In this document: piece by piece, positions 6,467-43,084 of the stretch
How positions within the stretch are numbered: the first letter of the stretch is position 1
Layout of the letters: every line of letters begins with the position of its first letter
Origin: Escherichia coli
GTDB taxonomy: Bacteria > Pseudomonadota > Gammaproteobacteria > Enterobacterales > Enterobacteriaceae
NCBI RefSeq assembly: GCF_002854065.1
Contig: NZ_CP024147.1
Length of the DNA: 64,000 nt
Direction: 5' to 3' (one strand)
Translations under genes and position numbers: made by a program
The notes under the pieces: generated by a model
Databases searched by the model: none
What the model saw: only the letters and a program-made list of their open reading frames with translations
Told to the model about the DNA's origin: nothing

Positions 6467-6469
6467 TTG

Positions 6470-6600: not shown

Positions 6601-6640
6601 TGTCATCAGTTTCAAATGGCGCTTTATAAGGTGCCATTTT

Positions 6641-7203: not shown

Positions 7204-7215
7204 CTCTTCATCCTT

Positions 7216-8532: not shown

Positions 8533-10230
8533 TTAGATGGAGGTACGGCGGTAGTCGCGGTATTCGGCTTGCCAGAAATTATCGTCAATGGCTTGTTGCA
8601 AAGCTTCGGCAGACGTTTTCACCGCCACGCCTTGCTGCTGCGCCATTTTGCCAACCGCAAACGCAATTGCGCGGGAGACTTTCTGAATATCTTTTAGTTC
8701 CGGTAGTACCAGACCTTCGCCGTTCAGCACCAATGGTGAATACTGCGCCAGCGTCTCACTTGCCGACATCAGCATCTCATCGGTGATACGTGACGCGCCG
8801 GAAGCAATAACACCCAGCCCGATGCCTGGGAAAATAAAGGCGTTGTTACACTGGGCGATAGGGTAGATTTTATCTTTCCATACCACTGGATTAAACGGGC
8901 TGCCCGTGGCGACCAGCGCGTTACCTTCGGTCCAGGCGATAATGTCCTGCGGTGTGGCTTCCACGCGTGACGTCGGGTTAGACAGTGGCATCACGATCGG
9001 ACGCGGACAGTGTTTATGCATCTCACGGATGATCTCTTCCGTAAACAGCCCGGTCTGTCCTGAGACGCCAATCAGAATATCTGGTTTTACATTGCGCACC
9101 ACATCCAGCAGTGACAACACATCGCTGTCGGTATCCCAGTCACTGAGGTTTTCGCGCTTCTGCACCAGTTTGGTCTGGAAAGGCAGCAGGTTCGGCATCT
9201 TGTCGGTCAGCAAGCCAAAGCGATCGACCATAAAGACTTTCTGCCGCGCCGCTTCCTCGCTTAATCCTTCGCGCTGGGTCTGGGCGATGATCATTTCGGC
9301 AATGCCGCATCCCGCTGAACCTGCGCCAAGGAAGACGATTTTTTTCTCGCTTAACTGACCACCTGCCGCGCGGCTTGCTGCGATCAGGGTGCCGACTGTT
9401 ACCGCCGCAGTGCCCTGAATGTCATCGTTAAAGGAACAAATTTCATTGCGATAGCGGTTAAGTAACGGCATCGCATTTTTTTGTGCGAAGTCTTCAAACT
9501 GCAACAGCACGTCCGGCCAGCGTTGTTTCACAGCCTGGATAAATTCATCAACGAATTCATAGTATTCGTCGTCAGTGATACGCGGATTACGCCAGCCCAT
9601 ATACAGCGGATCGTTAAGCAGCTGTTGGTTGTTGGTGCCGACATCCAGCACCACCGGAAGGGTATACGCCGGGCTGATGCCGCCACAGGCGGTATAGAGC
9701 GACAGTTTACCGATCGGAATGCCCATCCCGCCGATGCCCTGGTCACCAAGCCCCAGAATACGTTCACCGTCAGTCACCACAATCACTTTAATATTATGGT
9801 TCGGCACGTTTTGCAGAATATCGTCCATATTGTGGCGGTTCTGGTAAGAGATAAACACGCCGCGTGAACGGCGGTAGATCTCAGAAAAACGCTCACAGGC
9901 TGCGCCGACGGTTGGGGTATAAATAACAGGCATCATCTCATCAAGATGATTGTTTACCAGACGGTAGAAGAGGGTTTCGTTGGTGTCCTGGATGTTACGC
10001 AGGTAGATGTGTTTGTCGATTTCGGTTTTGAATCCCTGATACTGGATCCATGCTCGTTCCGCTTGTTCTTCGATGGTTTCGACCACTTCCGGCAGTAACC
10101 CCAGCAGGTTGAAGTTACGGCGTTCTTCCATGCTGAAGGCACTGCCTTTATTCAACAACGGAAATTCCAGCAGTACAGGGCCAGCGTAAGGGATATAAAG
10201 CGAACGCTGTTTTTTTGTTTTTGGTTCCAT
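8533..10230 (-). CDS. maeA: NAD-dependent malic enzyme
   Basis: Start taken at [18 protein letters not shown] (565 aa); malic enzyme family motifs present. Confidence 0.9.
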
Positions 10231-10320
10231 GTCACTCACTCTTTTTTGAATATCCATCCCTGGGGGCTTTTATCGTCTTTGCTTTACCGCCAGGGCGTCG
10301 GCCCCAAGTATAAAGCAGAT

Positions 10321-10355
10321 AAAAACAAAAACACCATTGCGCAGGCAATGGTGTT
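10321..10355 (-). terminator. Rho-independent terminator of sra
   Basis: On the minus strand: acaccattgc-ctgcgc-gcaatggtgt hairpin followed by UUUUUGUUUUU. Confidence 0.5.
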
Positions 10356-10385
10356 TAATCGTCATTGAGGACTGATGGTTATGAA

Positions 10386-10523
10386 TTACTTTTCAGCGGG
10401 GCGTTTTCTGCCGGTTGGGTTATTTACCACGCTAGATTTGTCACCTTCGGTAACTATTTTGCGCTGGTTAGATATTTTATGGTCCAGTCCAAGAATATGA
10501 CGTGCCTGACGGTTCGATTTCAT
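10386..10523 (-). CDS. sra: Stationary-phase ribosome-associated protein (30S protein S22), 45 aa
   Basis: Minus-strand translation [45 protein letters not shown]. Below the 60-aa ORF-track cutoff, so read by hand. Confidence 0.85.
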
Positions 10524-10624
10524 TTTAACTCCTCAATCCTGTTGCTAGTTTTAAGGACAACATCGCCGTAGCGAAGAAACACGTGCTAAACCCCTAAATT
10601 AGGTTGCCGATCAAGCATAGCACC

Positions 10625-10840
10625 TTAAAGCGTAGGGTGCTGGCCACTGACCACATAATTGATCGTTTGCTGGTAGATATCACTGAGGATGTCGTTATCA
10701 GAAGCTTCCACCCATTTGGTCAGCTCCATGAGAATGTCATCTTCAGTGACAACACCGTGCTCTGCCAGAAGGCCTTGCTCAATGGCATTAACCAGAGCGG
10801 GTTCTGCTGTTGAATTTTCTGCCTGATAATAAGTAAACAT
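10625..10840 (-). CDS. bdm: Biofilm-dependent modulation protein, 71 aa
   Basis: Start taken at MFTYYQAENSTAEP within the 92-aa track ORF. Confidence 0.8.
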   Translation of the reverse strand: MFTYYQAENSTAEPALVNAIEQGLLAEHGVVTEDDILMELTKWVEASDNDILSDIYQQTINYVVSGQHPTL

Positions 10841-11185
10841 AGTGATTCTCCGTGTCTGTGTATTTATGGTGTCTGCTACGGATCGCAGATTTATAAAGCA
10901 CATTCAGCATGGCAAATATTTGCCGCTTCGTTGTTGAGATTAGTCCTGGTTGATGATTTTTATATTTTAACCCTATGATATTGATAGGTATTATTATTGT
11001 GGTGAGTTGATTGATATTGATGCAATATCTCTTGAGATATATATTCCCGGTTATCTATTGTGGGAATTTAATTTAAGTGCAGAAGTAATATTTTCTGCCG
11101 GATTTTATTCGGAATATCCTGCTTATCCTCGTGCTGTTTCTCACGTAGTCTATAATTTCCTTTTTAAGCCCACAGGAGAGCAACA
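10841..11185. promoter_or_regulatory. AT-rich divergent bdm/osmC promoter region
   Basis: 345-bp AT-rich intergenic region between divergent bdm and osmC. osmC is known to have tandem stress-responsive promoters here; individual sites not resolved. Confidence 0.4.
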
Positions 11186-11617
11186 ATGACAATCCATAAG
11201 AAAGGTCAGGCACACTGGGAAGGCGATATCAAACGCGGGAAGGGAACAGTATCCACCGAGAGTGGCGTGCTGAACCAACAGCCGTATGGATTTAACACGC
11301 GTTTTGAAGGCGAAAAAGGAACCAACCCTGAAGAACTGATTGGCGCAGCGCATGCCGCATGTTTCTCAATGGCGCTTTCATTAATGCTGGGGGAAGCGGG
11401 ATTCACGCCAACATCGATTGATACCATCGCCGATGTGTCGCTGGATAAAGTGGATGCCGGTTTTGCGATTACGAAAATCGCACTGAAGAGTGAAGTTGCG
11501 GTGCCGGGTATTGATGCCTCTACCTTTGACGGCATCATCCAGAAAGCAAAAGCAGGATGCCCGGTCTCTCAGGTACTGAAAGCGGAAATTACGCTGGATT
11601 ACCAGTTGAAATCGTAA
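11186..11617 (+). CDS. osmC: Osmotically inducible peroxiredoxin (OsmC/Ohr family)
   Basis: 143-aa ORF with the conserved Cys pair (AAHAACFSMAL ... KAKAGCPVSQ). Confidence 0.9.
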   Translation: MTIHKKGQAHWEGDIKRGKGTVSTESGVLNQQPYGFNTRFEGEKGTNPEELIGAAHAACFSMALSLMLGEAGFTPTSIDTIADVSLDKVDAGFAITKIALKSEVAVPGIDASTFDGIIQKAKAGCPVSQVLKAEITLDYQLKS

Positions 11618-11672
11618 AGCGTTGCAGGATGACGCGTCAGGCGCGTGAATGCCTGATGCGTTGTTAGCATCT

Positions 11673-12599
11673 CTACAGCGCCCGCCAGCACCGGAGCTCA
11701 CGTCCGTCCTCCCTTATTGCTAATGATTGCCGGACTTCGCATCCGCTGGTTGCAAGGGGGCAACGTTCGCGGAAAAAACAGCCTTGCGGCAACGTGCGGT
11801 TTCCCGGCAGTTCCGTTTTACGTAATGCCCATTCTTCCTCCAGCGGTTTATCAATGGCGGGGAGGGAGTCCAGCAATAATCGGGTGTACGGATGTGCCGG
11901 AGCCGTCAGTACCTGTTGCGCGTCGCCCAGTTCTACAATCTGCCCGAGATACATCACCGCTACCCGATCGCTCATATGACGAATCACCGAGACATTGTGT
12001 GAGATCAGCACATAGGTCAGCCTGCGATTTACCTGTAGCGTTATCAGTAAATTGAGGATCTGCGCCTGCACGGAGATATCCAGCGCCGAGGTTGGCTCAT
12101 CAAGCACAATCACGTCAGGCTGCGAAGAGAGTGCTCTGGCAATGGCGATGCGTTGCCGCTGCCCGCCGGAGAACGCATGAGGCAGGCGGTCGAGATACTC
12201 CGGACGAATACCCACCTGCACAGCCAGCTCCTCTGCCAACGCTCGCCGCTGTTGTTCACTACTACGCTTAGCTATCCAGAGCGGTTCTGTGATGATGCGC
12301 CACACCGGTAAGCGCGGATTGAGCGAAGAGAGCGGGTCCTGAAACACCATCTGCATAATGCGTTGTGAGCCAGAACGGATGTACTGCCCGTGGCTCGGTT
12401 GCAGCATACCCATTAAAAGCTGTGCGAGGGTGCTTTTGCCGCAGCCTGACTCGCCGACGATCCCTAAGGTTTCACCACGGCGGATCTGTAAATCAATACC
12501 ATTAATGGCATGAACATGTTCCGTAGTTTTACCAAGCCAGTTTTTACGGGCCGGGAAATTGATATGGACGTCGCGTAACGTTAATAACGTGTCAGACAC
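11673..12599 (-). CDS. ddpF: D,D-dipeptide ABC transporter ATP-binding protein
   Basis: 308 aa; Walker A GESGCGKST and signature LSGGQRQR. Confidence 0.85.
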   Translation of the reverse strand: MSDTLLTLRDVHINFPARKNWLGKTTEHVHAINGIDLQIRRGETLGIVGESGCGKSTLAQLLMGMLQPSHGQYIRSGSQRIMQMVFQDPLSSLNPRLPVWRIITEPLWIAKRSSEQQRRALAEELAVQVGIRPEYLDRLPHAFSGGQRQRIAIARALSSQPDVIVLDEPTSALDISVQAQILNLLITLQVNRRLTYVLISHNVSVIRHMSDRVAVMYLGQIVELGDAQQVLTAPAHPYTRLLLDSLPAIDKPLEEEWALRKTELPGNRTLPQGCFFRERCPLATSGCEVRQSLAIREDGRELRCWRAL

Positions 12600-13578
12600 T
12601 TATGACCTCCTGCTGCGGATACCAACAGGCGCAGCGCTGGTTGTTGTCACCACACGCTGTCAGCGCCGGGACGTTTTCACACTGTGCACCTGCCGCATAG
12701 CAACGATCGCGAAAAGCGCAGCCGTCAGGCAAATGGGTGAGGTTTGGTACCGTCCCTGGAATGGCGGGTAATGGCTGGCGTGGTACTCCATGTTCTGGTG
12801 CGCATTGCAGCAAACCAATGGTATACGGATGCCGGGGATGATGGATAACGTCTGCCGTCACGCCGCTTTCAATTACGCTTCCGGCATACATCACGTAAAC
12901 GCTATCGCACAGTTGCGACACCACGGCCATATCATGGCTGATGAACAGTACCGCAGTTCCACTAGCGCGGGCTTTATGTTTAAGCAAACGCAGTACCTGC
13001 AACTGTACCGTGACGTCCAGCGCCGTAGTCGGTTCGTCGGCAATAATCAATTGCGGCTCGCAGGAGAATGCCAGCGCAATCATTACCCGCTGGCGCATAC
13101 CACCTGAAAGCTCAAACGGATAGCGCGACATAACTTCCACGGCATCCGGGATTTGCATCTCTTCCAGCAGGGCAATCGCTTTAGCTCTGGCTTCCCGACG
13201 ACTTATTGGTTGATGATGGCGGATCACGTCCATCATCTGAAGACCTATTCGACGTGTCGGATTGAGGGCGGTCATCGGTTCCTGAAAGATCATCGCCACT
13301 CGTGCGCCGCGCCACTGACGAAGCTGTTTTTCCCGAGCGTTAAGAACATCGTCTCCCAGCAGTGAAATCTGCCCCCGATGTACGCAATAACTGCCCGTCG
13401 GTAGCAGACGCATAATCAGCATTGCGGTGACTGATTTACCTGAGCCGGATTCTCCCACCAGACCGACAATTTCACCGCGGTTAATCTGCAAGGACACATT
13501 GTTGAGCGCGTGTACATCACCGTTAAAACCGGGGAAACTCAAATGCAGTTGTTGAATGTCCAGAACGGGTTGGGTCAT
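12592..13578 (-). CDS. ddpD: D,D-dipeptide ABC transporter ATP-binding protein
   Basis: 328 aa; Walker A GESGSGKSV, signature LSGGMRQR. Overlaps ddpF start by 8 bp. Confidence 0.85.
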   Translation of the reverse strand: MTQPVLDIQQLHLSFPGFNGDVHALNNVSLQINRGEIVGLVGESGSGKSVTAMLIMRLLPTGSYCVHRGQISLLGDDVLNAREKQLRQWRGARVAMIFQEPMTALNPTRRIGLQMMDVIRHHQPISRREARAKAIALLEEMQIPDAVEVMSRYPFELSGGMRQRVMIALAFSCEPQLIIADEPTTALDVTVQLQVLRLLKHKARASGTAVLFISHDMAVVSQLCDSVYVMYAGSVIESGVTADVIHHPRHPYTIGLLQCAPEHGVPRQPLPAIPGTVPNLTHLPDGCAFRDRCYAAGAQCENVPALTACGDNNQRCACWYPQQEVISV

Positions 13579-14471
13579 GACTGCTTTCCTCCTGCTTTCG
13601 GGTCAAGCAGATCGCGAATACCATCACCAAAGAGATTAAACCCGACGGCGGTAAGCAAAATCGCTGTCCCCGGAAATGCGCAATACCACCACTGATCGAG
13701 TACATAGTTGCGACCATTCGCTACCATCGCGCCCCATTCAGCACTCGGTTGTTGAGCACCCAGGCCAATAAATCCCAACGTGGCGGCCATTAAAATCGCG
13801 CTACCGATATCCAGCGATGCCTGCACGATCAGCGACGGCAGGGAGTTACGTAAAATATGCCAGTTGATCAGATGCCAACGCGACGCGCCAAAGGTTTTCG
13901 CCGCCTGAACATAGGTATACTGGCGTACAACTAATGCTTGCCCCCGCGCCAGGCGCACATAAAAGGGAATTCGCACAATAGCAATCGCCAGCATGGCGTT
14001 AAATAAACTCGGCCCGAGAGCGGCAGCCAGTGCCATTGTCAGTACCAACGAAGGAATCGACAGCATAATGTCCATGATGCGCATGATGATGGCGTCTGCG
14101 CGTCCGCCAAGCACACCGGATAGACATCCGAGTAGCGAACCAATCATACCCGCAATGGCGACCACCACTAATCCGGCGAGAATTGATTGCTGACTGCCGA
14201 CCAGTACGCGGCTGAACAGATCGCGTCCCACTTCATCGGTGCCAAACCAGTGCGCCGCAGAAGGCGGCAAAAGGCGGGCGGTTAAATCAATGGCGTTGGG
14301 ATCATGCGTCGCAAGCCACGGTGAAAAAATCATCATCAATAGCATTAATACAATGATGACTGCGCCGGTCACGGTGAGCGGACTGCCTTTCAGCATCCAT
14401 ACCAGTTTTGCACCGTTAAATCGCGTTTGTTTTTGTGGGCGTACGGCGGACGTTTCCTCGCTTAGCATCAT
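13575..14471 (-). CDS. ddpC: D,D-dipeptide ABC transporter permease
   Basis: 298-aa hydrophobic ORF of the DppC/OppC type; 4-bp overlaps with neighbours. Confidence 0.85.
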   Translation of the reverse strand: MMLSEETSAVRPQKQTRFNGAKLVWMLKGSPLTVTGAVIIVLMLLMMIFSPWLATHDPNAIDLTARLLPPSAAHWFGTDEVGRDLFSRVLVGSQQSILAGLVVVAIAGMIGSLLGCLSGVLGGRADAIIMRIMDIMLSIPSLVLTMALAAALGPSLFNAMLAIAIVRIPFYVRLARGQALVVRQYTYVQAAKTFGASRWHLINWHILRNSLPSLIVQASLDIGSAILMAATLGFIGLGAQQPSAEWGAMVANGRNYVLDQWWYCAFPGTAILLTAVGFNLFGDGIRDLLDPKAGGKQS

Positions 14472-15490
14472 TCACCACCTCCACGTCCGATACGCGGATC
14501 AATCCACAAATAGAGCAAATCCACCACCAGGTTGACCAGCACATAAGCAAATGAAACCACGACGGCAAAGCCCATCACTGCCGGGAAGTCGAGCGCCTGT
14601 ATTGATGTTACTACCCATGCCCCCATTCCGGGCCAGGCAAAAACGGTTTCGGTGAGCACTGCGCCATACAACAAATCGCCCAGCGCCAGACCCAATACGG
14701 TAATCGATGGGATCAACGCATTGGGTAGCGCATAACATAAAACGATATACCAGCCGGGCAAGCCGCTGGCCCGGGCGGTACGAATGTAGTCTTCACTCAA
14801 TTGTTCCAGCATCGCTGAGCGGATCTGGCGAGCGACAATTCCCAGGTGAACGAACGCCAGCGTTAATGCCGGTAAGATGAGATGTTGCAACGCATTGAAG
14901 AAGACTTCACTGTTGCCTTCAAGCAACGCATCGAGCAGATAAAAGCCGGTAACGTGCGTTGGTGGATCCAGCCAGTCATCAAGCCTTCCGCCGCCGGGAA
15001 GTATTTGCAGATGACCATAAAACAGCACAATGACGCCCAGCCCAAGCCAGAACGCAGGTGTGGAGATTCCGGTAATGGCCATTATTCGCACCAGATGATC
15101 CAGCCAGCGATTTCGCCAGACTGCAGAGAGTATGCCCAGCGGGATGCCAATCAAGAGTGCCAGCAGCAGGACACAAAAAGCCAGCTCCAGCGTCGCCGGG
15201 AAAAATATACGCAACTCTTCCAGCACCGGACGCCCGGTACGAATGGATGTCCCCAGGTCACCATGAAACAGATCGCTGACGTAGCGGTAAAACTGTACGT
15301 ACAGTGGCTGGTCCAGCCCCAGTTGCTGGCGAATATTTTCCACGATAGCATCGCTGGCGCGGTCACCTGCCAATAACCGCGCCGGATCGCCGGGGATCAG
15401 ATGCGAGATAATAAACGTAATCACACAGACCCCCGCCATCACGAGCACCAGCCCCCAACAGCGTTGGCGTAAAATACTCCAGAAGGTCAC
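14468..15490 (-). CDS. ddpB: D,D-dipeptide ABC transporter permease
   Basis: 340-aa hydrophobic ORF of the DppB/OppB type. Confidence 0.85.
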   Translation of the reverse strand: MTFWSILRQRCWGLVLVMAGVCVITFIISHLIPGDPARLLAGDRASDAIVENIRQQLGLDQPLYVQFYRYVSDLFHGDLGTSIRTGRPVLEELRIFFPATLELAFCVLLLALLIGIPLGILSAVWRNRWLDHLVRIMAITGISTPAFWLGLGVIVLFYGHLQILPGGGRLDDWLDPPTHVTGFYLLDALLEGNSEVFFNALQHLILPALTLAFVHLGIVARQIRSAMLEQLSEDYIRTARASGLPGWYIVLCYALPNALIPSITVLGLALGDLLYGAVLTETVFAWPGMGAWVVTSIQALDFPAVMGFAVVVSFAYVLVNLVVDLLYLWIDPRIGRGGGE

Positions 15491-15491
15491 G

Positions 15492-17042
15492 TTATTTACT
15501 CATGGTATTGATATTGAAGACCTGTTCCAGCATGGGATTGAACACAAAGCCTTTCACCTCTTTGTTCATCGCCAGTTGGTAGTTTTTCTGGAACAGGTAC
15601 ACATAAGCAGCGTCATCAATGACGATTTTCTGTGCCTGCTGGTAGTTCCGGGTACGCTGCGTCTGGTCGGTGGTCGCGAGCGCATTGCGCAGTAACTTAT
15701 CAACCTCACTGTTTTCATAGAACGAGCGGTTACCCGGCAGACCTTTTTTGTCGGACTCAAACCAGTAATTCATAAACATATACGGGTCGGCAAAATCCGG
15801 ACTCCAGTTGCCAATCGCAATGTCGTAATCACCTTTACCCACTCTGTCGCGCATGGTGGCGTTCGCCAGCTTTTCCAGCTTCACATTGATGCCCAGCTTG
15901 TTGAGACTGGATTGTGTCGCTAGAGCAATAGGCTCCCAGTTCGGATCATTATCAGAATAGAGAAACGTCAGGCTGGTGGGTTTGCTCTTCACTTTATCCC
16001 ATTCGGCTTTGGCTTTCGTTTCGTCATGGTTGTATTGCATTGCCGTCGCATCGTAGCCCCACATGCCTTCCGGAATCGGGCCGCGCATTTGTTTTCCGTT
16101 ACCACTCAGAATGCCGTTAACCATGCCCTGATAATCGGTAGACCAGGAAATGGCCCGCCGCAGCTCCGCCTGATTAAGTGGCGCTTTGCTGTTATTCAGA
16201 TACAGATAGGTGACGCGCAGTGACGGATACTCTGCCACATTGACTTTATTTTCCTACTTCAGGGCGTTGAGTTGATCCACCGGCAGCGCATCGGCAATGT
16301 CAATGTCGCCACGGGAGAGCTGCAGGCGACGGGAGGCACTTTCACCGATAATTTTTACCGATACTCGCTTAAAGTTCGGTTTATTGCCGGGGTAATGCGG
16401 ATTTGGCACCAGAACTAATTGCTGACCTTTTTGCCAGCTTTTCAGCATAAATGGTCCGGAACCGGCGGTATTTTGCGCGAGGAAGCCGCGGGCATCATCC
16501 GCCGCATGTTCCTTTAACACCGCCGGATTGATAATGGATGCACCGTCATTCGCCAGCGTGTAGAGGAACGGTGCGAATGGTTGGCTAAGGGTAAACTTCA
16601 CCGTATGTTCGTCGGGAGCATCAATCTTTAAATCTTTGGGAAATGCTTCTGCTGGCCCCTGGCCGATTTTTAGTAGCCGCTCAAAAGAAAGTTTTACTGC
16701 TTCGGCAGTGACAGGTGTGCCATCGGCAAATTTAGCATTATCTTTCAGGGTGAACGTCCACTCTTTTTGATCGTCAGACGCTTTCCAGCTACTTGCCAGA
16801 TCGCCTTCAACGTCGGTTGAGCCTTTATCACCGTCCGTTTTGTACTGAACCAGTCGCTGATAAGACGGGTAGGTCACCGTCCAGTCGTTATTATCTATTG
16901 TTACCGCCGGGTCGAGGGTTTGTGGATCGGCGGCCTTACCAATCACCAGCATATCTTTCGGTACGGCGGCGTGCGCAACCGGGAAAGTTGTGGCAAGGAC
17001 GAGCGCGAGCAATGTGGGACGAAACGATATCGATCTCTTCAT
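15492..17042 (-). pseudogene. ddpA: D,D-dipeptide periplasmic binding protein gene interrupted by a single in-frame TAG (codon 263 of 516)
   Basis: Track ORFs 16254..17180 and 15492..16238 are in the same frame, separated only by the TAG at 16254..16256 (…LDQLNALK * ENKVNVAEYPSLRV…). Signal peptide MKRSISFRPTLLALVLATTFPVAHA at the start; SBP family 5. Confidence 0.8.
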
Positions 17043-17055
17043 GACAGTTTCCTGA

Positions 17056-17637
17056 TTAACTGACGTGCTGTGTGCCAGGGGATATAAAACAAGAGAATTG
17101 ATCAGCGAGCAGTGGGTAACTCGCTGCCTGGGGTAATTCGAAGTGCCACCATTCGCTGGAGATACCGACAAAACCGCCACCAGTCATAATCGCATTCAGC
17201 AACAGCCGATTGCGCTGAGCGGCGGGCGGGACGGAAGGATGGTAAGCATGGGAGCGCTCGTGCATTTCATCGAACCCTGCGCCCATATCGAGGATGTTCC
17301 CGTGCTCATCACGAAGCGTCAGGTCGATCGCCGTGCCACGGCTGTGATTAGAACCGACCGTCACATCAACAACATATTGCGGGTCTGGGCAGGCTTGCCA
17401 CAACATCGCCTGCGCTTGTTGTGGGCGATACGCATCGTAAATCACCAGTTGTAAGCCTGAGAGCTGGGCGATACTGATACTTTTCGCCAGCGCGGTAATC
17501 GCATCCTTGTGTAACAGACAACGCGCTTGCTGATAAATAGCTTTACCTGTGATGTTATCAGCGCAGGCGTATTTCAATTCGATCTCCAGATCAGGGAAGA
17601 TTACGGCTAAATCAACCAGTTCGGTGGTATCCGACAT
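17056..17637 (-). CDS. ddpX: D-Ala-D-Ala dipeptidase (VanX homolog)
   Basis: 193-aa ORF with zinc-dipeptidase motifs (SNHSRGTAIDLTL, EWWHFE). Confidence 0.85.
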   Translation of the reverse strand: MSDTTELVDLAVIFPDLEIELKYACADNITGKAIYQQARCLLHKDAITALAKSISIAQLSGLQLVIYDAYRPQQAQAMLWQACPDPQYVVDVTVGSNHSRGTAIDLTLRDEHGNILDMGAGFDEMHERSHAYHPSVPPAAQRNRLLLNAIMTGGGFVGISSEWWHFELPQAASYPLLADQFSCFISPGTQHVS

Positions 17638-17680
17638 AAACGGTTCCTGTATAAGACAAAAATTGCTGCGCTTTCCGCTT

Positions 17681-17697
17681 ATGCAGATCTCATGCCA
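17681..17697 (-). promoter_or_regulatory. Sigma-54-type promoter (TGGCAT-N6-TGCAT) upstream of ddpX
   Basis: Minus-strand sequence tggcatgagatctgcat has GG and GC at the canonical -24/-12 spacing, about 45 bp upstream of the ddpX ATG. Fits the known nitrogen (NtrC) control of the ddp operon. Confidence 0.45.
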
Positions 17698-17894
17698 TGC
17701 CGGGATAAGCGCCAGAATGCTGGCTTAAAGTTATATTTTTTAACTTTTGATCAACATTTGTGCAGCGTAGTGCAGTTTTGGTGCAAGAGGGGAAGTTAAG
17801 GAAGGAATCTCCCGGAATCGTAGCTGAAATCACAGTATTTAAGTGACAGTGTCACGTTAAATGAAAACCCGCGAGTGCGGGCGAGAGGAATTTG

Positions 17895-20294
17895 TCAGAT
17901 TTTCAGCGGTAACACGCTGCTCATCCAGCCTGGAATTTCTTCGGCGGGCAGGGGGCGGGAAAAGAAATATCCCTGAATAACGCGACAGTGGATCTTGCGT
18001 AGCATCTCAAATTGCTCTTTGGTTTCGACGCCTTCCGCCACGACGGTTAAATTGAGGCTTTGCCCAATGCTGGTAATGGCTTCAAGTAAGGCAAGGATGC
18101 GTTTTTCCGTCAGACAACGATCGACAAAACTTTTGTCAATTTTGATTTCCGTTACCGGAAGACTGACTAAGCGGGATAATCCGGAAAAGCCCGTGCCAAA
18201 ATCATCTACCGATAAACCCACGCCCATATCACGCAGGATCTGAATGCGCTTAAAGATTTCGGTATCGTGTTCCATCATCATGCTTTCCGTGATTTCCACC
18301 GTCAGCTGGTGGCCGTCAATACCCCAGGCTTGCATTGCATCAGACACCTGATTAGGCAGTTGATTACTGCGAAAGTGCAGCGCCGACAAGTTCACGGATA
18401 ACGCCGGGATATGAATATTCTGGCTACGCCATTCTGCTAACTGACGGCAAGCTTCCGCGATGACCCTGCGCCCAATATTTTCGATTTCACCAATCTCTTC
18501 TGCGAGAGGAATAAACCGTGAAGGGGGCACATGACCATGCTGGGGATCGTGCCAGCGAGCAAGGGCTTCGATGCCGTACAGTTCACCCGTTTCTGCGAAG
18601 ATTTGCGGCTGGTAAACCAGTTTCAGTTGGTTATTGCTAATCGCTTCTTTCAGCGCTGCGCCTAAAACCAAACGCTCTTTTACCATTTCGTTCATCGCCG
18701 GGCTGAAGAACTGCCAGCCGTTACCGCCATTCTTGCGAATATAATCCATTGCATTGTGAGCAGTGGAGAGCAGGTAATCGCGGTTTTTACCCACGTCGTA
18801 GCTGATGCCAATACTCAAGGTAAGCGGGAAGGGTTTATCGTCAATCATTATCGGCTTGCTGACCACATTCCGTAGCTCATCGGCGATTTGGGTAATGTTA
18901 CTGACGTCGTTTTCCAGGCTCACGAGGACAAACTGCGTACCTTCGATACGACAGAGATACTGATCCGGTTTGAGTTTTTCACGAAAGCGATTGACCACTT
19001 CCAGCAATGCCTGATCGGCCCACGCATAGCCAAGGCTATCAATCACATCCTGAATATGGTCAACACCGATGAGATACACCACCGGAGAGACGGCTTTGTC
19101 GACCAGGTCATCGAGGTAATTGTGCAGGTTATTGCGATTTGGCAGACCGGTCATCGGATCAAATTGGATGAGTTGTTCAATATGCTGACGGCTTTTTTCC
19201 TGTTCCAGCGCCAGCGCGGCCATATGCTGGCTGATATCTGCCACGCGTTCGATAAAGGCGCTGGTTTCTGCTCCTGACGAGGTTTTAATTTGCAGGATCC
19301 CCGCAGGCGCACCATCACGCTGACGAATGGTCGCTGACCAGCTTTGCGCATTTTGAACTTCTGCACCGTGCGAAGATGACGCCCAGTGTATCGGCATCCC
19401 GTTGCGCAGTGCGAACAGCGAAACATGCGATTCGTTGAGAACAGATTCGATATTACGACAAATGATTTCCCCCATTTCATGAAATGGCGGGCTGCTGCAC
19501 ATGGCGGCGAGAATATTGCCTTCAAGCTGGCGGATCTGCCGTTCTTCGGTGATATCCGAGAAAGTCATTACCAGGTTCTGCAGATGCGCGAGCACGTCAT
19601 AAACCGGGCTGATAGAGGCTTTAATCCAGATTTTTTCACCGGTGCGCGTCAACAGCAGAAATTCGTCCTGATCGCGGGCGGTTTTCCATAGCAACTGTTG
19701 TAAACGAATGCGGTTATCGGCAGGGAATTCAGGAATGTTCAGGAGTGTATCGGGCTGCATACCGCTGGCTTCGCTAATGCAGTAACCAAACATTTCGGTA
19801 AATGCGCGATTGCACTGCACAATATGGCGTTCCGGATCGAGGACAATCACCGGTCGGTCGAGATGGTCAACGGCAATAATCAATTGTCTGGTCTGTTCTT
19901 TTTGCGCCATTTCTACGCTGGCATCCCGTACCAGCGCCAGGTAATAAACTTTCCCCTCGGCGCTCACTTTCGATAGCGCAAAACGGGTCCAGATTTTACT
20001 GCCGTCTTTTTTCTCCAGCTGCAGCTCCCGACTCATCCCCTCAACACGCGCTTTACCGCCTTCACGGTTATGACGAATGTATTCAGGATGCGCAGGACGC
20101 AAATCCCGCGGAATCAGCATATCAATGTTATTGCCAATGACTTCTTCACGTTTGTATCCCCAGAGCTTCTCTGCGGCGGGGTTGAAAAACATCACTTCAT
20201 CATTTTCGTTAATTAACACCGCACCCATCATATTTTGCTCAAGGGCGGGGAAAAAAATGCCATCGGCGGCATTATCCGCATCGGTTAGCTTCAT
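17895..20294 (-). CDS. dosP: Heme-regulated c-di-GMP phosphodiesterase (PAS-PAS-GGDEF-EAL), oxygen sensor
   Basis: Start taken at MKLTDADNAADGIFF (799 aa); degenerate GGDEF and an EAL domain (EALARW, DDFGTG). Confidence 0.9.
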   Translation of the reverse strand: MKLTDADNAADGIFFPALEQNMMGAVLINENDEVMFFNPAAEKLWGYKREEVIGNNIDMLIPRDLRPAHPEYIRHNREGGKARVEGMSRELQLEKKDGSKIWTRFALSKVSAEGKVYYLALVRDASVEMAQKEQTRQLIIAVDHLDRPVIVLDPERHIVQCNRAFTEMFGYCISEASGMQPDTLLNIPEFPADNRIRLQQLLWKTARDQDEFLLLTRTGEKIWIKASISPVYDVLAHLQNLVMTFSDITEERQIRQLEGNILAAMCSSPPFHEMGEIICRNIESVLNESHVSLFALRNGMPIHWASSSHGAEVQNAQSWSATIRQRDGAPAGILQIKTSSGAETSAFIERVADISQHMAALALEQEKSRQHIEQLIQFDPMTGLPNRNNLHNYLDDLVDKAVSPVVYLIGVDHIQDVIDSLGYAWADQALLEVVNRFREKLKPDQYLCRIEGTQFVLVSLENDVSNITQIADELRNVVSKPIMIDDKPFPLTLSIGISYDVGKNRDYLLSTAHNAMDYIRKNGGNGWQFFSPAMNEMVKERLVLGAALKEAISNNQLKLVYQPQIFAETGELYGIEALARWHDPQHGHVPPSRFIPLAEEIGEIENIGRRVIAEACRQLAEWRSQNIHIPALSVNLSALHFRSNQLPNQVSDAMQAWGIDGHQLTVEITESMMMEHDTEIFKRIQILRDMGVGLSVDDFGTGFSGLSRLVSLPVTEIKIDKSFVDRCLTEKRILALLEAITSIGQSLNLTVVAEGVETKEQFEMLRKIHCRVIQGYFFSRPLPAEEIPGWMSSVLPLKI

Positions 20295-23527: not shown

Positions 23528-25063
23528 TTAGTGTTTCTTGTCATTCATCACAATATAGTGTGGTGAACGTGCACGCGGGTGCAGGAAGAAGTGACCTTTT
23601 GGTGCGTTCTGACTGTTGATTGGCTCCAGAGTGACGCCGGTATTCGCTTTGCCTTTACGATCATGAACAGCATAGAGAATAAAGGGCAGGGCAAGTACCA
23701 CCAGGAAACTAACGACCAGTAATTCAACATACATATCGGTAGAGTCACCCTGGATGTTATCCGGCGGCAGGAAGGAAACAATAAACGCCATAATTGAAGT
23801 CAGCAGACCGACAATTGCCACGACCAGTTTCACCCCTTTACCACCAGGGATATTAAATGTGCGTTTTAAGTCAGGATGTTTAAGAACCAACACAATGTAG
23901 CCAATAAACAGCATGAAATAAGCACACAGATAAATCACCACCGTCAGCGCCAGTGCGATCAGGAAGGACATGTTGTTACCGCCACCGGTATTGGTGAGGA
24001 TGATCAACGCGATAGAAGTAATCACCAGCTGTGAAATGACCAGCGTTACCGGTACGCCATTTTTGTTCATTTTAGCGAATGCCGCTGGCAGCAGGTTTTT
24101 CTGCGCTGTGACATACATCCCGCGAGAAGGACCAACAATCCAGGAGGCGATTTCCGCCAGAACACCCAGCAACAGCAGTGCGGAGATCACGCGAACCGTC
24201 CACTCAATTTCCGGTGCCACATGAGACATCAGAACGGTAAAGGTTTGCATTACCCCTGCGGAGAGGTTGATTTCATTACCCGGAATGACCATCGCAATAG
24301 ACAAACCACCAACAGAGCTTAAGCAGATTGCCGCCACCATCAGCAGTAACATAGCCAACGGATAGTCGCGCCCTGGGTTGCTCATTTCATTGACGTGGGT
24401 TGCGGATGCTTCTACGCCCATATAACTCAAAATGAAGGCAACAAATACAACCAGGGTGCCCACTTTAGAGAAGTCAGGGAAGAAGGTCTTCGAATCCATT
24501 TCGATAGCAACGGGGGCACCGGAGTGCAGATAAATAGCCGCTAATGCAATCAAAATAAATGCAGGTAACAGGATGCCGGCGAAGAAGCCAACTTTAGCAA
24601 TTCGCGCCGTGTATTTCGTGCCACCAAACTGCGTTAATGCCAGCGCCCAAAGAATGATGAGTGCTGCAATAGTTTTGGTAATGGGGTCTTCATTCAGCGC
24701 TGGCCATTTCAGGATGTAGGAGAGTGCCCCTAACACGAAATAGAGCATCGGAATAAAACCAATGGCGATTTGCAGATAGCCAAATGAGATCGCTGCAAAT
24801 CCCCATCTCGGCCCCAGAGTATTTGATACCCAGGCGAAGACACCACCTTCTTCCCAGCCGTCGACGGTGGCCATTTCCGCAGCACAAAGTCCCACGGGAA
24901 TAAACCATAAAATCCCGCCTAATAGCAGGAAGAAGACTAATGAAAAGCCCGATGTTGCGAAGGTAGGGTATTCATAAACAGCCATTACCATCGATGCCGT
25001 TATGGCAAAAAAGCCGAGTAATGTGAGCTGCTTAGCTTTACCTGTCTGTACTGATGTAGCCAT
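23528..25063 (-). CDS. gadC: Glutamate:GABA antiporter (APC family)
   Basis: 511-aa polytopic membrane ORF immediately downstream of gadB. Confidence 0.9.
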
Positions 25064-25162
25064 ATTATCCCCCTAAAACGGTATTCCTGTCGGAACCGCA
25101 CCTGTTTTGTTCTGAAGCGTATTCAGAACAATATTTTCCGTTGCTAATGCCAGTGAACAGAC

Positions 25163-25188
25163 TTTGGAAATTGTCCCGAAACGGGTTC
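25163..25188 (-). terminator. Hairpin between gadB and gadC (partial terminator / attenuator)
   Basis: gtcccgaaac-ggttc-gtttcgggac perfect 10-bp stem. Confidence 0.4.
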
Positions 25189-25218
25189 GTTTCGGGACAC
25201 CGTTACCGTTAAACGTTA

Positions 25219-26619
25219 TCAGGTATGTTTAAAGCTGTTCTGTTGGGCAATACCCTGCAGTTTCGGGTGATCGCTGAGATATTTCAGGGAGGCTTTGTAG
25301 TCTTCCAGCAACAGTTCAGCAAAGTCCATTTCGAAGCCGCGACGACACATAATGCGCATCACCACGATGTCGGTGGCTTCACCGCCGAGAGTGAAGGCCG
25401 GAACCTGCCAGCCGCGCAGACGCAGACGTTCAGAGAGGTCGTACAGGGTGTATCCCGGATCTTCACCCTCTTTCAGTTTGAAGCAAACCGCCGGGATGCC
25501 TTCGTCCGGGCGACCCGTACAGATGAACTCATACGGCCCCAGTTTGGCGATTTCATCCGCCAGATAAGCAGCAACCTGGTAAGAGGCGTTCTGTACTTTG
25601 GTGTAGCCTTCACGACCGAGGCGCAGGAATTCATAGTACTGTGCAATTACCTGACCTGCCGGGCGGGAGAAGTTGATGGCAAAAGTACCAATCTGACCAC
25701 CCAGGTAGTCAACGTTGAACACCAGTTCCTGCGGCAGCGCTTCTTCGTCACGCCAGATAACCCAGCCGCAGCCCAGCGGAGCCAGACCGAATTTATGGCC
25801 TGAAGCACTGATCGATTTCACACGCGGCAGGCGGAAGTCCCAGACGATATCCGGGGCGACGAACGGTGCCAGGAAGCCACCGCTGGCGGCGTCGATGTGC
25901 ATGTCGATGTCGATACCGGTGTCGGCCTGGAATTTATCCAGCGCATCGTGCAGCGGTTGCGGGAACTCATAGTTACCGGTGTAGGTCACGCCGAAAGTCG
26001 GCACCACGCCGATGGTATTTTCGTCGCAGGCTTCAATCATGCGTTTCGGATCCATAAACAACTGACCGGGGCGCATAGGGATCTCACGCAGCTCCACATC
26101 CCAGTAGCGGGCGAATTTATGCCAGCAGATTTGCACCGGACCGCACACCAGGTTTGGTTTATCCGTTGGTTTGCCTGCAGCTTCCATACGCTTGCGCCAA
26201 CGCCATTTCATCGCCATCCCGCCGAGCATACAGGCCTCGGAAGAACCAATGGTGTTGGTGCCAACGGCCTGACCATTTTTCGGCGCAGGCGCATGCCACA
26301 GATCGGCAACCATATTTACGCAACGCAGGTCGATGGCTGCAGATTGCGGATATTCTTCTTTGTCGATCCAGTTTTTGTTAATGGATAAATCCATCAACTT
26401 GTGGACATTTTCGTCGTCCCAGGTCTGGCAGAAAGTGGCCAGGTTCTGACGAGCGTTGCCATCAAGATATAATTCGTCATTGATAATCTGAAATGCGACA
26501 TCGTCGCGCATTTCGTGCAGCGGAAAACGTTTTGATTCTGCGATAGTGGAAATAGACTTCGCACCAAAACGTGAATCGAGTAGTTCCGACCTTAAATCCG
26601 TTACTTGCTTCTTATCCAT
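25219..26619 (-). CDS. gadB: Glutamate decarboxylase beta (PLP-dependent)
   Basis: Start taken at [22 protein letters not shown] (466 aa); PLP-lysine region [15 protein letters not shown]. Confidence 0.9.
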
Positions 26620-35414: not shown

Positions 35415-37097
35415 TTATTTCGCTTCGCTTAGTGCTTTCTTGATATTGTTAAACTTCTCCTGATTTACCTCGCTAAGCGGTGGCTGGCTGCTGTCGATAA
35501 ACTCTCTTACCACGCCTTGCATCTCTTTAACGACCTGCGGATTGGCGGCGGCAAGGTTATCTTTTTGCTGTAGATCCGTCAGTTTGTAGAGACCTAACTG
35601 ATTGTTTTCTACTGTATAGACAAGCGAATAATCGTTATTTCTCACCGTATAAGAGAATTGGCTTAAGTCCTCAGTGTTGGGGTTATGCGGGTAATCGTCT
35701 GACTGATGACGGACAAATTTGTGGTAATTATCCCAGAATGGAATATTTTCCTCATCAAACCAGTGAGAATAAGAGGTTATCCAGGTCAGATTTTTATGTG
35801 GCTCGCCTTGTTTCTTATCTTGCAACCAGGGCAGCAAGGAAACGCCATCCAGCTTAAGGTCTTTTGGAATGCTGATATCGGCTGCATCAAGAGCTGTCGG
35901 GTAGAAATCCATTGCGGAAATCAGCTTGTCATAATTACCGGGTTGAAGTTTTCCTTTCCACCACATAAACATTGGGGTGTGAGTACCGCCAGGATAGGTC
36001 TGACTCTTATAGCCTTTTTGCGCCCCGTTCAGCGGCAGAGGGCCATCGATAACCGCACCATTATCGGAGGTAAAGAGAATAATTGTATTGTCATACTGTC
36101 CGTTTTTCTTCAGTTGTTCGAGAATGCGTTTTACACCCTGATCAACAGAATAAACGGAAGCGTAGTAGTTATCTGCTGTTTGACTACCGGTATTAAATTG
36201 CTTCTGATATTGCTCCGGTGCAGGATTATCATTTGGCAGGTGCGGAGCATTATAAGCCAGGTAAAGCATAAAAGGCTGGTCAAGTGTTTTGGCACGATCA
36301 ACAACGCCAATTGCCTCATCGGTTAACTGATCGCTGATATAACCTTTTGCGGGGACACGTTCACGATTTTTGAACAGTGAAGGGGAGTTGTAATATGCCG
36401 TTCCTGCAGCGTGGAATCCCATAAAGTAATCAAAGCCACGGTTTTGCGGTTGCCATTCTTCCGCAGAAAATGTGGTGAAGTTGTCATGATAGTCACGTGT
36501 TTGTTTATCTTCCGGTACCGGCACATTACTGATTTTTGACAAGTGCCATTTACCTACTGCTGCAGTGTAATAACCATGATTCTGGAATAATTCAGGCAAG
36601 AAAGTTTCTGTGAGCGGAATACCATCCTGAGCATCGGTATTGGAATAGACACCAAAGCGGGCGGGAGCTCGACCGGTCATTATTGCGGCGCGGGAGGGGC
36701 CGGAAACACCGTGTGCCACATAGCCGTTAGTAAAACGTACGCCTTCATCCATTAATGAAAGGAGCGTCGGCGTTGATTTTTGTGCAGCTTCAATGGCTTT
36801 ATCTATCCCTATTTTGTAGGTATCGACAACTTCACGATTTTCCATTGTTTTTGGGTCAAAAGATCCCTTATCAAAAGGAAGTTGTCCATAACCAAGATCA
36901 TCCATGGTCAGTACGATAATATTTGGCTTTCCTTTGGTACTGTATTCAGTCGGCGTAAAGTCTGAGAAAGCAACGTTTGTTTTGGTTGCTTTCAGCTTTA
37001 CATCATCTGCCGCATGAGCAGCAAATGCAGCCATACCAGATGCCAGTATCAAAGATATCGAGGTACTTACGACACTTTTCTTTAATGCAGACTTCAT
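35415..37097 (-). CDS. ydeN: Sulfatase (alkaline phosphatase superfamily), secreted
   Basis: Start taken at MKSALKKSVV (560 aa); signal peptide; sulfatase motifs (LTMDDLGYGQ, GKWHL). Confidence 0.8.
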   Translation of the reverse strand: MKSALKKSVVSTSISLILASGMAAFAAHAADDVKLKATKTNVAFSDFTPTEYSTKGKPNIIVLTMDDLGYGQLPFDKGSFDPKTMENREVVDTYKIGIDKAIEAAQKSTPTLLSLMDEGVRFTNGYVAHGVSGPSRAAIMTGRAPARFGVYSNTDAQDGIPLTETFLPELFQNHGYYTAAVGKWHLSKISNVPVPEDKQTRDYHDNFTTFSAEEWQPQNRGFDYFMGFHAAGTAYYNSPSLFKNRERVPAKGYISDQLTDEAIGVVDRAKTLDQPFMLYLAYNAPHLPNDNPAPEQYQKQFNTGSQTADNYYASVYSVDQGVKRILEQLKKNGQYDNTIILFTSDNGAVIDGPLPLNGAQKGYKSQTYPGGTHTPMFMWWKGKLQPGNYDKLISAMDFYPTALDAADISIPKDLKLDGVSLLPWLQDKKQGEPHKNLTWITSYSHWFDEENIPFWDNYHKFVRHQSDDYPHNPNTEDLSQFSYTVRNNDYSLVYTVENNQLGLYKLTDLQQKDNLAAANPQVVKEMQGVVREFIDSSQPPLSEVNQEKFNNIKKALSEAK

Positions 37098-37544
37098 AAA
37101 TGTTCCTCTTCTTATTGTACTTAATTCCAAAGTAATTTTACGAAGAGAAATAAGTGGATGTAAGTGAAGTTAGTCACATAAAGAGATAGCAGATTTAGCT
37201 AAAAAAAGGGAAATAACAGTCCATAAAGCGTTGACATTACTTTCTGTTCTACTAAGTAATTTCTCGCCGATAAACAACTAATCTATTGATATTTAATAAA
37301 TTATTGTATTTTACTGACAAAATGCCGAATTGAGATCATAAATAATCATGCAATAGGTTATGCAAATGCATAAATATGTGATGAATGTCACTTATTTATT
37401 TCAATAAATATATCGCCTAAAAACAACGCGGGGCAAGGAATGGCTGCCCCATTTAATTCTTACGTAGCGTGTGTGGTTGACTACCCGTTAGCAAATAATC
37501 AAATAGCTAAAGCACTCATCGTGTTGTCCGGTAATGACTCCAAC

Positions 37545-38048
37545 TTATTGATAGTGTTTTATGTTCAGATAATGCCCGATGACTTTGTCATGCAGCTCCA
37601 CCGATTTTGAGAACGACAGCGACTTCCGTCCCAGCCGTGCCAGGTGCTGCCTCAGATTCAGGTTATGCCGCTCAATTCGCTGCGTATATCGCTTGCTGAT
37701 TACGTGCAGCTTTCCCTTCAGGCGGGATTCATACAGCGGCCAGCCATCCGTCATCCATATCACCACGTCAAAGGGTGACAGCAGGCTCATAAGACGCCCC
37801 AGCGTCGCCATAGTGCGTTCACCGAATACGTGCGCAACAACCGTCTTCCGGAGCCTGTCATACGCGTAAAACAGCCAGCGCTGGCGCGATTTAGCCCCGA
37901 CGTATCCCCACTGTTCGTCCATTTCCGCGCAGACGATGACGTCACTGCCCGGCTGTATGCGCGAGGTTACCGACTGCGGCCTGAGTTTTTTAAATGGCGG
38001 AAAATCGTGTTGAGGCCAACGCCCATAATGCGGGCGGTTGCCCGGCAT
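37545..38048 (-). CDS. insB: IS1 InsB (transposase C-terminal part)
   Basis: 167-aa [19 protein letters not shown]... typical of IS1 InsB. A6C-type frameshift heptamer (minus strand AAAAAAC, plus 37985..37991) sits at the insA/insB junction. Confidence 0.9.
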
Positions 38049-38242
38049 CCAACGCCATTCATGGCCATATCAATGATTTTCTGGTGCGTACCGGGTTGAG
38101 AAGCGGTGTAAGTGAACTGCAGTTGCCATGTTTTACGGCAGTGAGAGCAGAGATAGCGCTGATGTCCGGCAGTGCTTTTGCCGTTACGCACCACCCCGTC
38201 AGTAGCTGAACAGGAGGGACAGCTGATAGAAACAGAAGCCAC
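37967..38242 (-). CDS. insA: IS1 InsA (transposition repressor / transposase N-terminus)
   Basis: 91-aa [27 protein letters not shown]... with zinc-finger Cys pairs. Confidence 0.9.
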
Positions 38243-38275
38243 TGGAGCACCTCAAAAACACCATCATACACTAAA

Positions 38276-39037
38276 TCAGTAAGTTGGCAGCATCACCGTG
38301 TTGTCCGTGTTCATACCGGTGTGCCTTTGACAACGGTACTCCTTAGAAACTCTCTTCGGACTGTTGCCGAAATGTTTGCGGAACGCATAAATAAAATAAG
38401 ATGTACTGGCATAACCACATTGTTCGGCAATTTTATTGACTGAACCTTCTACGCGTATCAAATTTTTTGCGTGCTGCATTCTGGCATCTAAAAGAATCTG
38501 TGAGAATGTCGTTTGCTCTTGCTTAAGTTTTTTCTTCAACAGGCTTTCACTGATGTACAGGCAGTCACAAATATCTTTCAGCTTCCATGGGTGCGCCAGC
38601 TTCATGTTGACAATATTTCTCACTTTCCCGGAAACGGATAGCACACCGTTAGTTAATAGTGTAATGAAACCTTTGCATGCGGCAAAAATAGACAGGCAAG
38701 AAAAAAGCAAAAGTTCTGAAAAATTATGATGATTGCGTTCTTCCGAGTTGAGATAAGCAATCATTTCATTAAGCAATCCAGTCGGTACATTAGAAGCACG
38801 TAAAAACTTCGCAGGAACAGGCACCGTCACTGTCTGGATGTTAGTGCATTGTAGATATTTTTTAATGGTATTTTCATTAAATCCGATTTCTTTAAAATGC
38901 CGCTCATAAGGTTCAAAATGCGTACGAACAGCGTTATCTACCATCAGGATCTCGCCGTCAGAGAAGGCGTAATCTTTATCTAAAATGTTAGCGTTGAAGG
39001 CATGATGAATAAATATAACAGAACAAACGAGCGACAT
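38276..39037 (-). CDS. ydeO: AraC-family acid-resistance regulator whose last 6 codons are replaced by IS1-encoded sequence
   Basis: 253-aa ORF. Reading frame crosses the right TSD into the IS1 end, ending …HTGMNTDNT-VMLPTY*. Skipping IS1 and one TSD copy, the uninterrupted frame would end …DNT-MSALAI*. Confidence 0.8.
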   Translation of the reverse strand: MSLVCSVIFIHHAFNANILDKDYAFSDGEILMVDNAVRTHFEPYERHFKEIGFNENTIKKYLQCTNIQTVTVPVPAKFLRASNVPTGLLNEMIAYLNSEERNHHNFSELLLFSCLSIFAACKGFITLLTNGVLSVSGKVRNIVNMKLAHPWKLKDICDCLYISESLLKKKLKQEQTTFSQILLDARMQHAKNLIRVEGSVNKIAEQCGYASTSYFIYAFRKHFGNSPKRVSKEYRCQRHTGMNTDNTVMLPTY

Positions 39038-39111: not shown

Positions 39112-39309
39112 TCAGTCTTGCAAACTATTGATAATGAAATGTGTAAGATCTCTTGCAATGCGACCCATTTCTGAAATGCCCAGCTGATCAATTGCCGAAA
39201 AAATGGCTATCAACGTAAGGGTCAGTAATAAGACAACCACAATTACAAACATGATTTCTTTATAGTTGTCTCTTTGCGTGATTTTGTTTTTCACTGTGGT
39301 CGAATGCAT
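39112..39309 (-). CDS. safA: Small membrane protein, PhoQ-activating connector (65 aa)
   Basis: MHSTTVKNKITQRDNYKEIMFVIVVVLLLTLTLIAIFSAIDQ… with a single TM helix, upstream of ydeO. Confidence 0.8.
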   Translation of the reverse strand: MHSTTVKNKITQRDNYKEIMFVIVVVLLLTLTLIAIFSAIDQLGISEMGRIARDLTHFIINSLQD

Positions 39310-42169: not shown

Positions 42170-43084
42170 TTATTCATAGATAAAAGTGACACCAATGACT
42201 GACTGGACGGTTCCGGCTGAAACTTTGTTCCCTGTTTGTCCATAGGTTGCGCTTAAACCCAGAGGTACTTTGCTTTTATTTACTGTCCCCAGGGAGACAT
42301 TTTCTCCCGTAGCCAGTATTTTTCCATTACGCATCAGAGAGACACCCACTCCCGATGCTTTTGTTGCATCTGGTGCTGTGTTAGCAAACACTTGTTTAGC
42401 ACTGTCAGTGGTAGCACCCGAAAGATAAAATGAGAGCTTTTGTTCACTTGAGCAATATACGCCAAGGGGGATTTCTGCGCTTCCAGGAAAGTCCGGGAGA
42501 TTCACGGTGACATTACGACTATCAACAGTGCAGCCGCCTGTTGGCATAACAACACTGTTATTTGAAATAATATTCCACGTAAAATTACGCGGATTTCCGC
42601 TTCCTAACGTGGCAATTTTATACATATGAATACGGGCAATAACTTCCCCGGCTTTTATGACAACTCCACCGGCCGCCCCGACTGGGGTAATATAGAGTTT
42701 TAACGGTAATGGCATCGGTGTCTTATCACCAATATCCAATACGTTGGTATTTGTCGTCAACGGGAAGGGGTAGGTCACATTATTCCAGTACAGCGATCCT
42801 TTATATGACTGTAGAGAGCCTGCGAAAGCTGAGCCTTGTACCAGGTTTATATGATCAGTGTCGTACCAGCCGCCGTAATCATTCCAGCAACTTATATGCT
42901 GAGACAAGTCTACAACCAGATTCTGGCCCGGCTGTATTACAGGGTCGAGATTAACATAAACAGAGGTTGTACCAGCTCCAATACTTGACCCGCCATCGAC
43001 ATTACAACTGAAGGCAAAAACTTTGCCTGCCATTAATAGAAGATAAATACCGAACAGGACCTTTATACTGATTGTTTTACCCAT
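42170..43084 (-). CDS. ydeQ: FimH-like fimbrial tip adhesin
   Basis: 304-aa ORF with signal peptide, aligning along its length with FimH as I recall it (…[14 protein letters not shown]…, C-terminal …GVTFIYE). Confidence 0.75.

Follow-up and report, generated by a model that had tools for sequence, protein, structure and literature searches.

An IS1 insertion exchanges the last six codons of the acid stress regulator gene ydeO and leaves the length of its reading frame unchanged

In the 64,000-nucleotide stretch of Escherichia coli DNA analysed here (hereafter the window, meaning that whole stretch), a complete IS1 element is inserted in ydeO 18 nt (six codons) ahead of the native stop codon, and the ydeO reading frame runs on into the end of the element, from which it takes six codons and a new stop. 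The native C-terminal residues MSALAI are replaced by VMLPTY, 97.6% of the protein is kept, and the open reading frame (ORF) is again 253 codons long. We consider it likely that the allele arose when an active IS1 moved into ydeO by simple transposition, recently and in this lineage alone, that the chimeric protein is functional, and that any phenotype lies most probably at the level of the RNA.

The IS1 element and the chimeric reading frame

The altered locus comprises the following features (window coordinates):

38276..39037, minus strand: chimeric ydeO coding sequence, 253 aa; residues 1-247 native, residues 248-253 (VMLPTY) and the TGA stop from IS1
38298..38306: 9-bp target duplication on the ydeO side (right), GTGTTGTCC, still inside the expressed ydeO ORF
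37530..38297, minus strand: complete IS1, 768 bp, transposase genes co-oriented with ydeO
38275..38297, minus strand: IS1 left inverted repeat (IRL), GGTGATGCTGCCAACTTACTGAT, holding ydeO codons 248-253 and the stop
37967..38242, minus strand: insA (91 aa), beginning with GTG at IS1 nt 56
37545..38048, minus strand: insB frame, 167 aa as an ORF; the normal product is InsAB', made by −1 frameshifting
37985..37993, minus strand: programmed −1 frameshift motif TTAAAAAAC (A6C), intact, IS1 nt 305-313
37530..37552, plus strand: IRR, the inverted repeat at the right end of IS1, GGTAATGACTCCAACTTATTGAT
37521..37529: 9-bp target duplication on the ydeN side (left), GTGTTGTCC, native ydeO codons D245-N246-T247 (minus strand)
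37499..37520, minus strand: severed native ydeO 3′ end on the far side of IS1, with codons M248-I253 at 37519..37502 and the native TGA at 37501..37499

The ydeO event is a textbook IS1 insertion. The preliminary description of this DNA had placed an IS1 with its target duplication at 37521-38306; those coordinates are exact, and the 9-bp repeats on the two sides are perfect. The element has the length (~768 bp), the terminal repeats, the insA/insB′ layout with A6C motif, the 8-9-bp duplication and the reference identity that define the IS1 family. Specifically, both terminal repeats match the pattern GGTRATG...CCAACTTAYTGAT (~23 bp, imperfect) with 0 mismatches, where 0 chance matches are expected, and 8 of the element's 768 positions differ from K-12 IS1A (99.0% identical). 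IRL holds a promoter-like site for insA, and the insA start, with a GAGG Shine-Dalgarno sequence 7 nt 5′ of the GTG, lies 33 nt past the chimeric ydeO stop.

A second IS1, 100% identical to the copy in ydeO, is located ~14 kb away in the window (52454-53221) and is flanked by a 9-bp duplication of its own, AACCGTCCC (52445-52453 and 53222-53230). The large autotransporter-adhesin gene that it interrupts (47549-53746, minus strand) becomes a single 1,806-aa ORF when the element is removed, and the N-terminal fragment of the split gene ends in the IS1 frame-1 tail GDAANLLI, followed by a stop. Recombination between the two window copies was considered and is ruled out, since each has its own matching duplication.

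The reading frame of ydeO passes through the right duplication into the IS1 terminus and acquires the six IS1-derived codons VMLPTY, as had been proposed and as the ORF confirms. In particular, IS1 nt 2-22 (window 38296..38276) encode ydeO codons 248-253 and the TGA stop, with the stop at IS1 nt 20-22, while codon 247 (ACG) straddles the junction, its third base being IS1 nt 1, which is the same as the native base. The chimeric protein ends ...MNTDNT-VMLPTY (...GMNTDNTVMLPTY, then stop); in-silico removal of IS1 and one duplication copy yields an ORF ending ...MNTDNT-MSALAI (...GMNTDNTMSALAI, then stop). The ORF is 253 aa long with IS1 and after excision, as the preliminary description had it. 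The restored protein is identical to WP_000060474.1 of strain CUWW06, and residues 1-247 of the chimera also match that protein exactly. Alignment to reference ydeO thus confirms MSALAI as the native C-terminus (MNALAI in K-12). Natural YdeO alleles end M[S/N]ALA[I/S] (12 alleles compared) and never VMLPTY, and the element begins ahead of the native stop, not wholly downstream of it.

IRL closes all three incoming frames: one with a stop at nt 5, one with VMLPTY and a stop at nt 22, and one with GDAANLLI and a stop at nt 27. VMLPTY is the generic frame-2 tail that IRL gives to any entering ORF, with nothing specific to ydeO, and the equal ORF length is a coincidence: IS1 landed six codons ahead of the native stop, and frame 2 of IRL likewise runs for six codons.

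The claim that annotation pipelines would call the gene intact is borne out by the databases. The exact chimeric protein is public as WP_101969398.1 and AUJ96036.1, under the ordinary RefSeq/GenBank names 'acid stress response transcriptional regulator YdeO' and 'AraC family transcriptional regulator'. It scores 596.3 bits against the NCBIfam YdeO equivalog NF007407 (match to residues 1-248), compared with 606.2 bits for the native protein (residues 1-253) and a cut-off of 348. The chimera shows none of the usual marks of a pseudogene (internal stop, frameshift, substantial truncation), with 247/253 residues kept; the insertion lies so near the native stop, with the length the same, that the event escapes pseudogene calling. 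Judged from equivalog score, domain architecture and synteny, the locus is a bona fide ydeO. A literature search for IS1 in ydeO found nothing relevant; the allele is undiscussed there, though its sequence is public.

Two neighbours of ydeO bear on the reading of the insertion:

39112..39309, minus strand: safA, 65 aa, directly upstream of ydeO, intact
35415..37097, minus strand: ydeN, sulfatase, 560 aa, next gene downstream of ydeO, intact

The gene order ydeP-safA-ydeO-ydeN-ydeM is, in order and strand, that of K-12 and CUWW06, and ydeN, ydeM, safA, ydeP, gadB and gadC are all intact in the window. IS1 had been described as lying between ydeO and an upstream ydeN-ydeM pair. The placement stands, but 'upstream' is true in window coordinates only: ydeO, ydeN and ydeM share the minus strand, and ydeN-ydeM lie downstream of ydeO in the sense of transcription. 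The gap between IS1 and ydeN is 432 bp, the ydeO terminator included. The paper on the YdeO regulon does not mention ydeN, ydeM or safA. Elsewhere in the window, gadC and gadB (23528-26619, minus strand), the final targets of the EvgA-YdeO-GadE cascade, lie ~11 kb away from ydeO. An internal stop at codon 263 of ddpA (15492-17042, minus strand), which encodes a D,D-dipeptide ABC transporter binding protein, is common to CUWW06, where the gene is annotated as a pseudogene.

Frequency, recency and related insertions

No complete E. coli genome (0/5,426) has a contiguous match to a 120-nt probe across the ydeO-IRL boundary; the only two full-coverage matches are IS1 copies several hundred bases from ydeO. 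Of the complete genomes, 5,335 have the rebuilt empty site, with 100% identity in all 15 among the matches listed. The chimeric protein is encoded on only 2-3 contigs, and the draft assembly GCA_035821435.1 has the identical junction, on a contig that matches the window at 100% identity and ends in 75 bases of IS1.

A Shigella origin, suspected because the junction is missing from the complete E. coli genomes, was dismissed, since the exact protein is recorded from E. coli and the window has a near-clonal E. coli relative. This relative, CUWW06 (10 mismatches, no gaps, over 34 kb), has an empty ydeO site; the site is also empty in strain 100416, which has 0 mismatches across 3.5 kb of the left flank. 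CUWW06 carries the identical IS1 isoform elsewhere, between ydeQ and ydeR (CUWW06 locus 8242-9010; window ~43039-43047), in a copy annotated as 'IS1-like element IS1B family transposase'. Because this near-clonal strain combines an empty site with an identical IS1 at another position, the insertion appears to be recent and the isoform active in the lineage; together with the genome counts, the comparison indicates an insertion that is recent, lineage-private and rare. The main differences between CUWW06 and the window are mobile elements, among them a tandem filamentous-phage-like prophage pair (zot, pIV/GspD-like, replication protein II/X; CUWW06 locus 792-19907) whose site is empty in the window (~45653-45668).

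An assembler that misplaced IS1 at a repeat boundary could mimic such an allele, IS1 being multicopy with a second identical copy 14 kb off. Nothing specific points to this, however; perfect 9-bp duplications surround both IS1 copies, deletion of either element restores an intact ORF, and the independent draft assembly shares the ydeO-IRL junction, and we regard an artefact as exceedingly improbable.

ETEC1747 and AR_0086 resemble the window in having IS1 in or near the 0.4-kb ydeO-ydeN interval, in the same orientation relative to ydeO. Their IS1 is, however, another isoform, 6.5-6.8% divergent; these are independent events, and the native YdeO C-terminus is kept in both. Specifically, IS1 lies 278 bp downstream of the ydeO stop in AR_0086 and at the ydeN start codon in ETEC1747. 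The ETEC1747 element (ETEC1747 locus 2293-3060) has an 8-bp duplication, CATAAATG, that contains the ydeN ATG; ydeN is cut off there from its ribosome-binding site and promoter, yet is annotated as intact. IS1 favours AT-rich DNA, the ydeO-ydeN spacer has a GC content of 33%, and the two spacer insertions fit that liking. Recurrent selection at the locus was considered and rejected: there are only three independent IS1 events in >5,400 genomes, the spacer is AT-rich, and one orientation in 3/3 events (p = 0.25) is not evidence of selection.

The exchanged tail and the DNA-binding domain

The exchanged residues lie outside the helix-turn-helix (HTH) domain. Pfam HTH_18 covers residues 157-231, with two HTH_AraC matches, and the swapped residues begin 17 past the HTH_18 boundary; the solved DNA-binding domain of GadX (3mkl) aligns with YdeO residues 138-238, and the model superposes on it at 0.9-1.0 Å. 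In AlphaFold2 models built from an 83-84-sequence alignment (mean pLDDT 92-93), the last helix ends at residue 240 in the chimera and at residue 243 in the native protein, and the rest of the tail is predicted as coil in both. The tail has the lowest pLDDT in the protein (native, 66-67; chimera, 68 for residues 241-250 and 78 for residues 251-253), values that are reduced, yet not very low.

Comparison with homologues and with natural alleles points in the same direction. Among 82 homologues, ≤15% have any residue in columns 248-253, which show no conservation, and the median length past the conserved P227 is 13 residues versus 26 in YdeO; the tails of closer YdeO-like proteins are unrelated. 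In a non-random sample of 12 natural E. coli alleles, 5/16 of the last positions are polymorphic versus 13/237 of the first (Fisher p = 0.003). A YdeO with a C-terminal 3xFLAG tag, which shares an altered C-terminus with the IS1 allele, was found by ChIP-chip at the gadE promoter and at six more (Yamanaka et al. 2014, PMC4222967), although the tagged protein was plasmid-borne and over-expressed and the gadE PCR control is given as 'data not shown'; moreover, the tag follows a complete native end at I253, and in the IS1 allele residues 248-253 are exchanged. Since the swap is outside the HTH, in predicted coil, in an unconserved segment that varies among alleles, and since the FLAG fusion binds DNA, the six-residue exchange appears unlikely to disturb the HTH domain or to have an effect at the protein level.

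Some doubt remains over a role for the hydrophobic YdeO C-terminus, for example in turnover, because M248 and A250-L251-A252 are invariant in the small, non-random sample of 12 alleles and the tail M[S/N]ALA[I/S] is largely kept in E. coli. The exchange itself might then alter the activity or half-life of YdeO, for instance if the native ...ALAI end acted as a protease signal that is absent from ...LPTY; we take the ALAI end to resemble ssrA-like C-terminal signals. However, the tail is missing or unrelated in homologues and is predicted coil, the substitutions I253S and N249S occur naturally, and C-terminal tagging is tolerated for DNA binding. Our literature search on YdeO proteolysis or the YdeO C-terminus, including links to Lon or ClpXP turnover, found nothing relevant, and we judge an effect of the exchange itself to be very unlikely.

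Other alterations were seen in or near the same tail. Eighteen Logan contigs from different runs all stop at K-12-type ydeO codon 240/241 (locus 2220-2222), 13 codons before the stop; their ends carry no foreign bases, and the NCBI 'partial' YdeO WP_169017361.1 stops at the same point. These ends may mark another point in the YdeO tail at which breaks or insertions recur, or they may reflect mixed populations. A 241-aa frameshift variant was considered as a natural tail-less allele; it is a single-run 1-nt deletion in a T-run and was not used as evidence. Long 'YdeO' proteins of 402-426 aa are fused to PapD-like chaperone, FimH-like or molybdopterin (YdeP-like) domains, which suggests rearrangements or mis-calls at the locus in some assemblies.

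Transcript-level consequences and known IS1 systems

A further feature bears on the ydeO transcript:

37419..37451 (hairpin 37451..37429), minus strand: native ydeO intrinsic-terminator-like hairpin and T-run, conserved in K-12

The terminator-like hairpin starts 48 nt past the native ydeO stop and is now ~825 nt past the chimeric stop, beyond IS1. No other terminator-like site was found on the minus strand in 37050-38400, which includes the inside of IS1. An Rfam scan of the ydeO 3′ region and the ydeO-ydeN spacer for known RNA elements gave only a chance-level match (E = 0.67). Because the only terminator-like site is beyond IS1, safA-ydeO transcripts would have to end in IS1 or run via insA/insB′. 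From transcription that arises in IS1, ydeN remains protected by the former ydeO terminator. On the layout of the locus, a transcript effect of the insertion appears more plausible than a protein effect.

The course of events that we favour is as follows. An active IS1 copy would have transposed into ydeO 18 nt before its stop, generating the 9-bp duplication; ydeO now reads through the right duplication into IRL, with MSALAI exchanged for VMLPTY at a constant 253 aa. The chimeric YdeO would still bind DNA and activate the EvgA-YdeO-GadE acid-resistance branch, because the exchanged residues lie in a non-conserved, probably unstructured extension past the last AraC-type helix. The ydeO message, having lost its nearby terminator, would end inside IS1 or continue as safA-ydeO′-insA-insB′ to the old terminator ~825 nt on, and the loss of the terminator could make ydeO mRNA more or less stable and let host transcription reach the transposase genes of IS1.

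IS1 is classically polar. The allele could be hypomorphic through its transcript, with an mRNA that ends heterogeneously in IS1 by Rho-dependent polarity or that carries a long 3′ extension, is less stable, and leaves YdeO output and the EvgA-YdeO-GadE branch weakened. That polarity, and the position of the hairpin just after the native stop as the sole such site in the region, with none detected inside IS1 on this strand, argue for such an outcome; insA, however, is translatable on the read-through transcript, which would limit the access of Rho, and GadE is also inducible without YdeO, through multiple regulators (PMC10057817), so the phenotype could be small. A hypomorphic allele of this kind seems unlikely to us.

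The main effect could instead fall on the element. EvgA-activated safA-ydeO lies in tandem with IS1, and mild acid would drive insA/insAB′ and alter the transposition rate of this copy. The same orientation, the lack of a terminator on the way from the ydeO stop to insA, and the insA Shine-Dalgarno sequence are consistent with this, but read-through would also raise the inhibitor InsA, 8 positions separate the isoform from the highly active K-12 consensus, and Machida and colleagues reportedly found in 1983 that read-through represses IS1 cointegration. Conversely, upstream host transcription into IS1A and IS1E raises insAB′ transcription and transposition, and transposition of both was lower when upstream transcription was blocked (Smith et al. 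2025, PMC12428005). A main effect on the element is, on balance, quite unlikely. A bolder extension is that IS1 has been wired to an acid-stress promoter, so that mild acid boosts the transposase and mobility becomes stress-inducible, while the swapped tail or the lost terminator might also retune the dose of YdeO; this we put forward as speculation that is improbable in our estimate.

In biological terms, the allele is a single rare one, its acid-resistance circuit is redundant, and it would matter only if an altered YdeO dose or an acid-inducible IS1 activity proved true. For annotation, it serves as a caution that an insertion sequence can give a regulator a new end and yet leave a same-length ORF that passes the equivalog threshold and is deposited as normal. 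The suffixes VMLPTY, VMTPTY and GDAANLLI, each directly before a stop, offer a cheap proteome screen for cryptic IS1 chimeras.

Set against known systems, the ydeO allele follows the generic closing of reading frames by insertion-sequence ends: as elsewhere, the IS end gives entering frames short IS-encoded tails, with IRL here stopping all frames within 27 nt. It departs from generic IS-interrupted ORFs in that the insertion is so near the native stop that the length stays the same. The closest parallels are K-12 IS1E, in yrhA, and K-12 IS1A (PMC12428005), each, as here, a 768-bp IS1 in tandem in or behind a host gene, so that host transcription can enter insAB′; the elements share the same inverted repeats, the same insA/insB layout and the same A6C site. 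In contrast to IS1E and IS1A, the host here is the 3′ end of a regulator gene with an acid/EvgA-inducible promoter, and the isoform differs at 8 positions.
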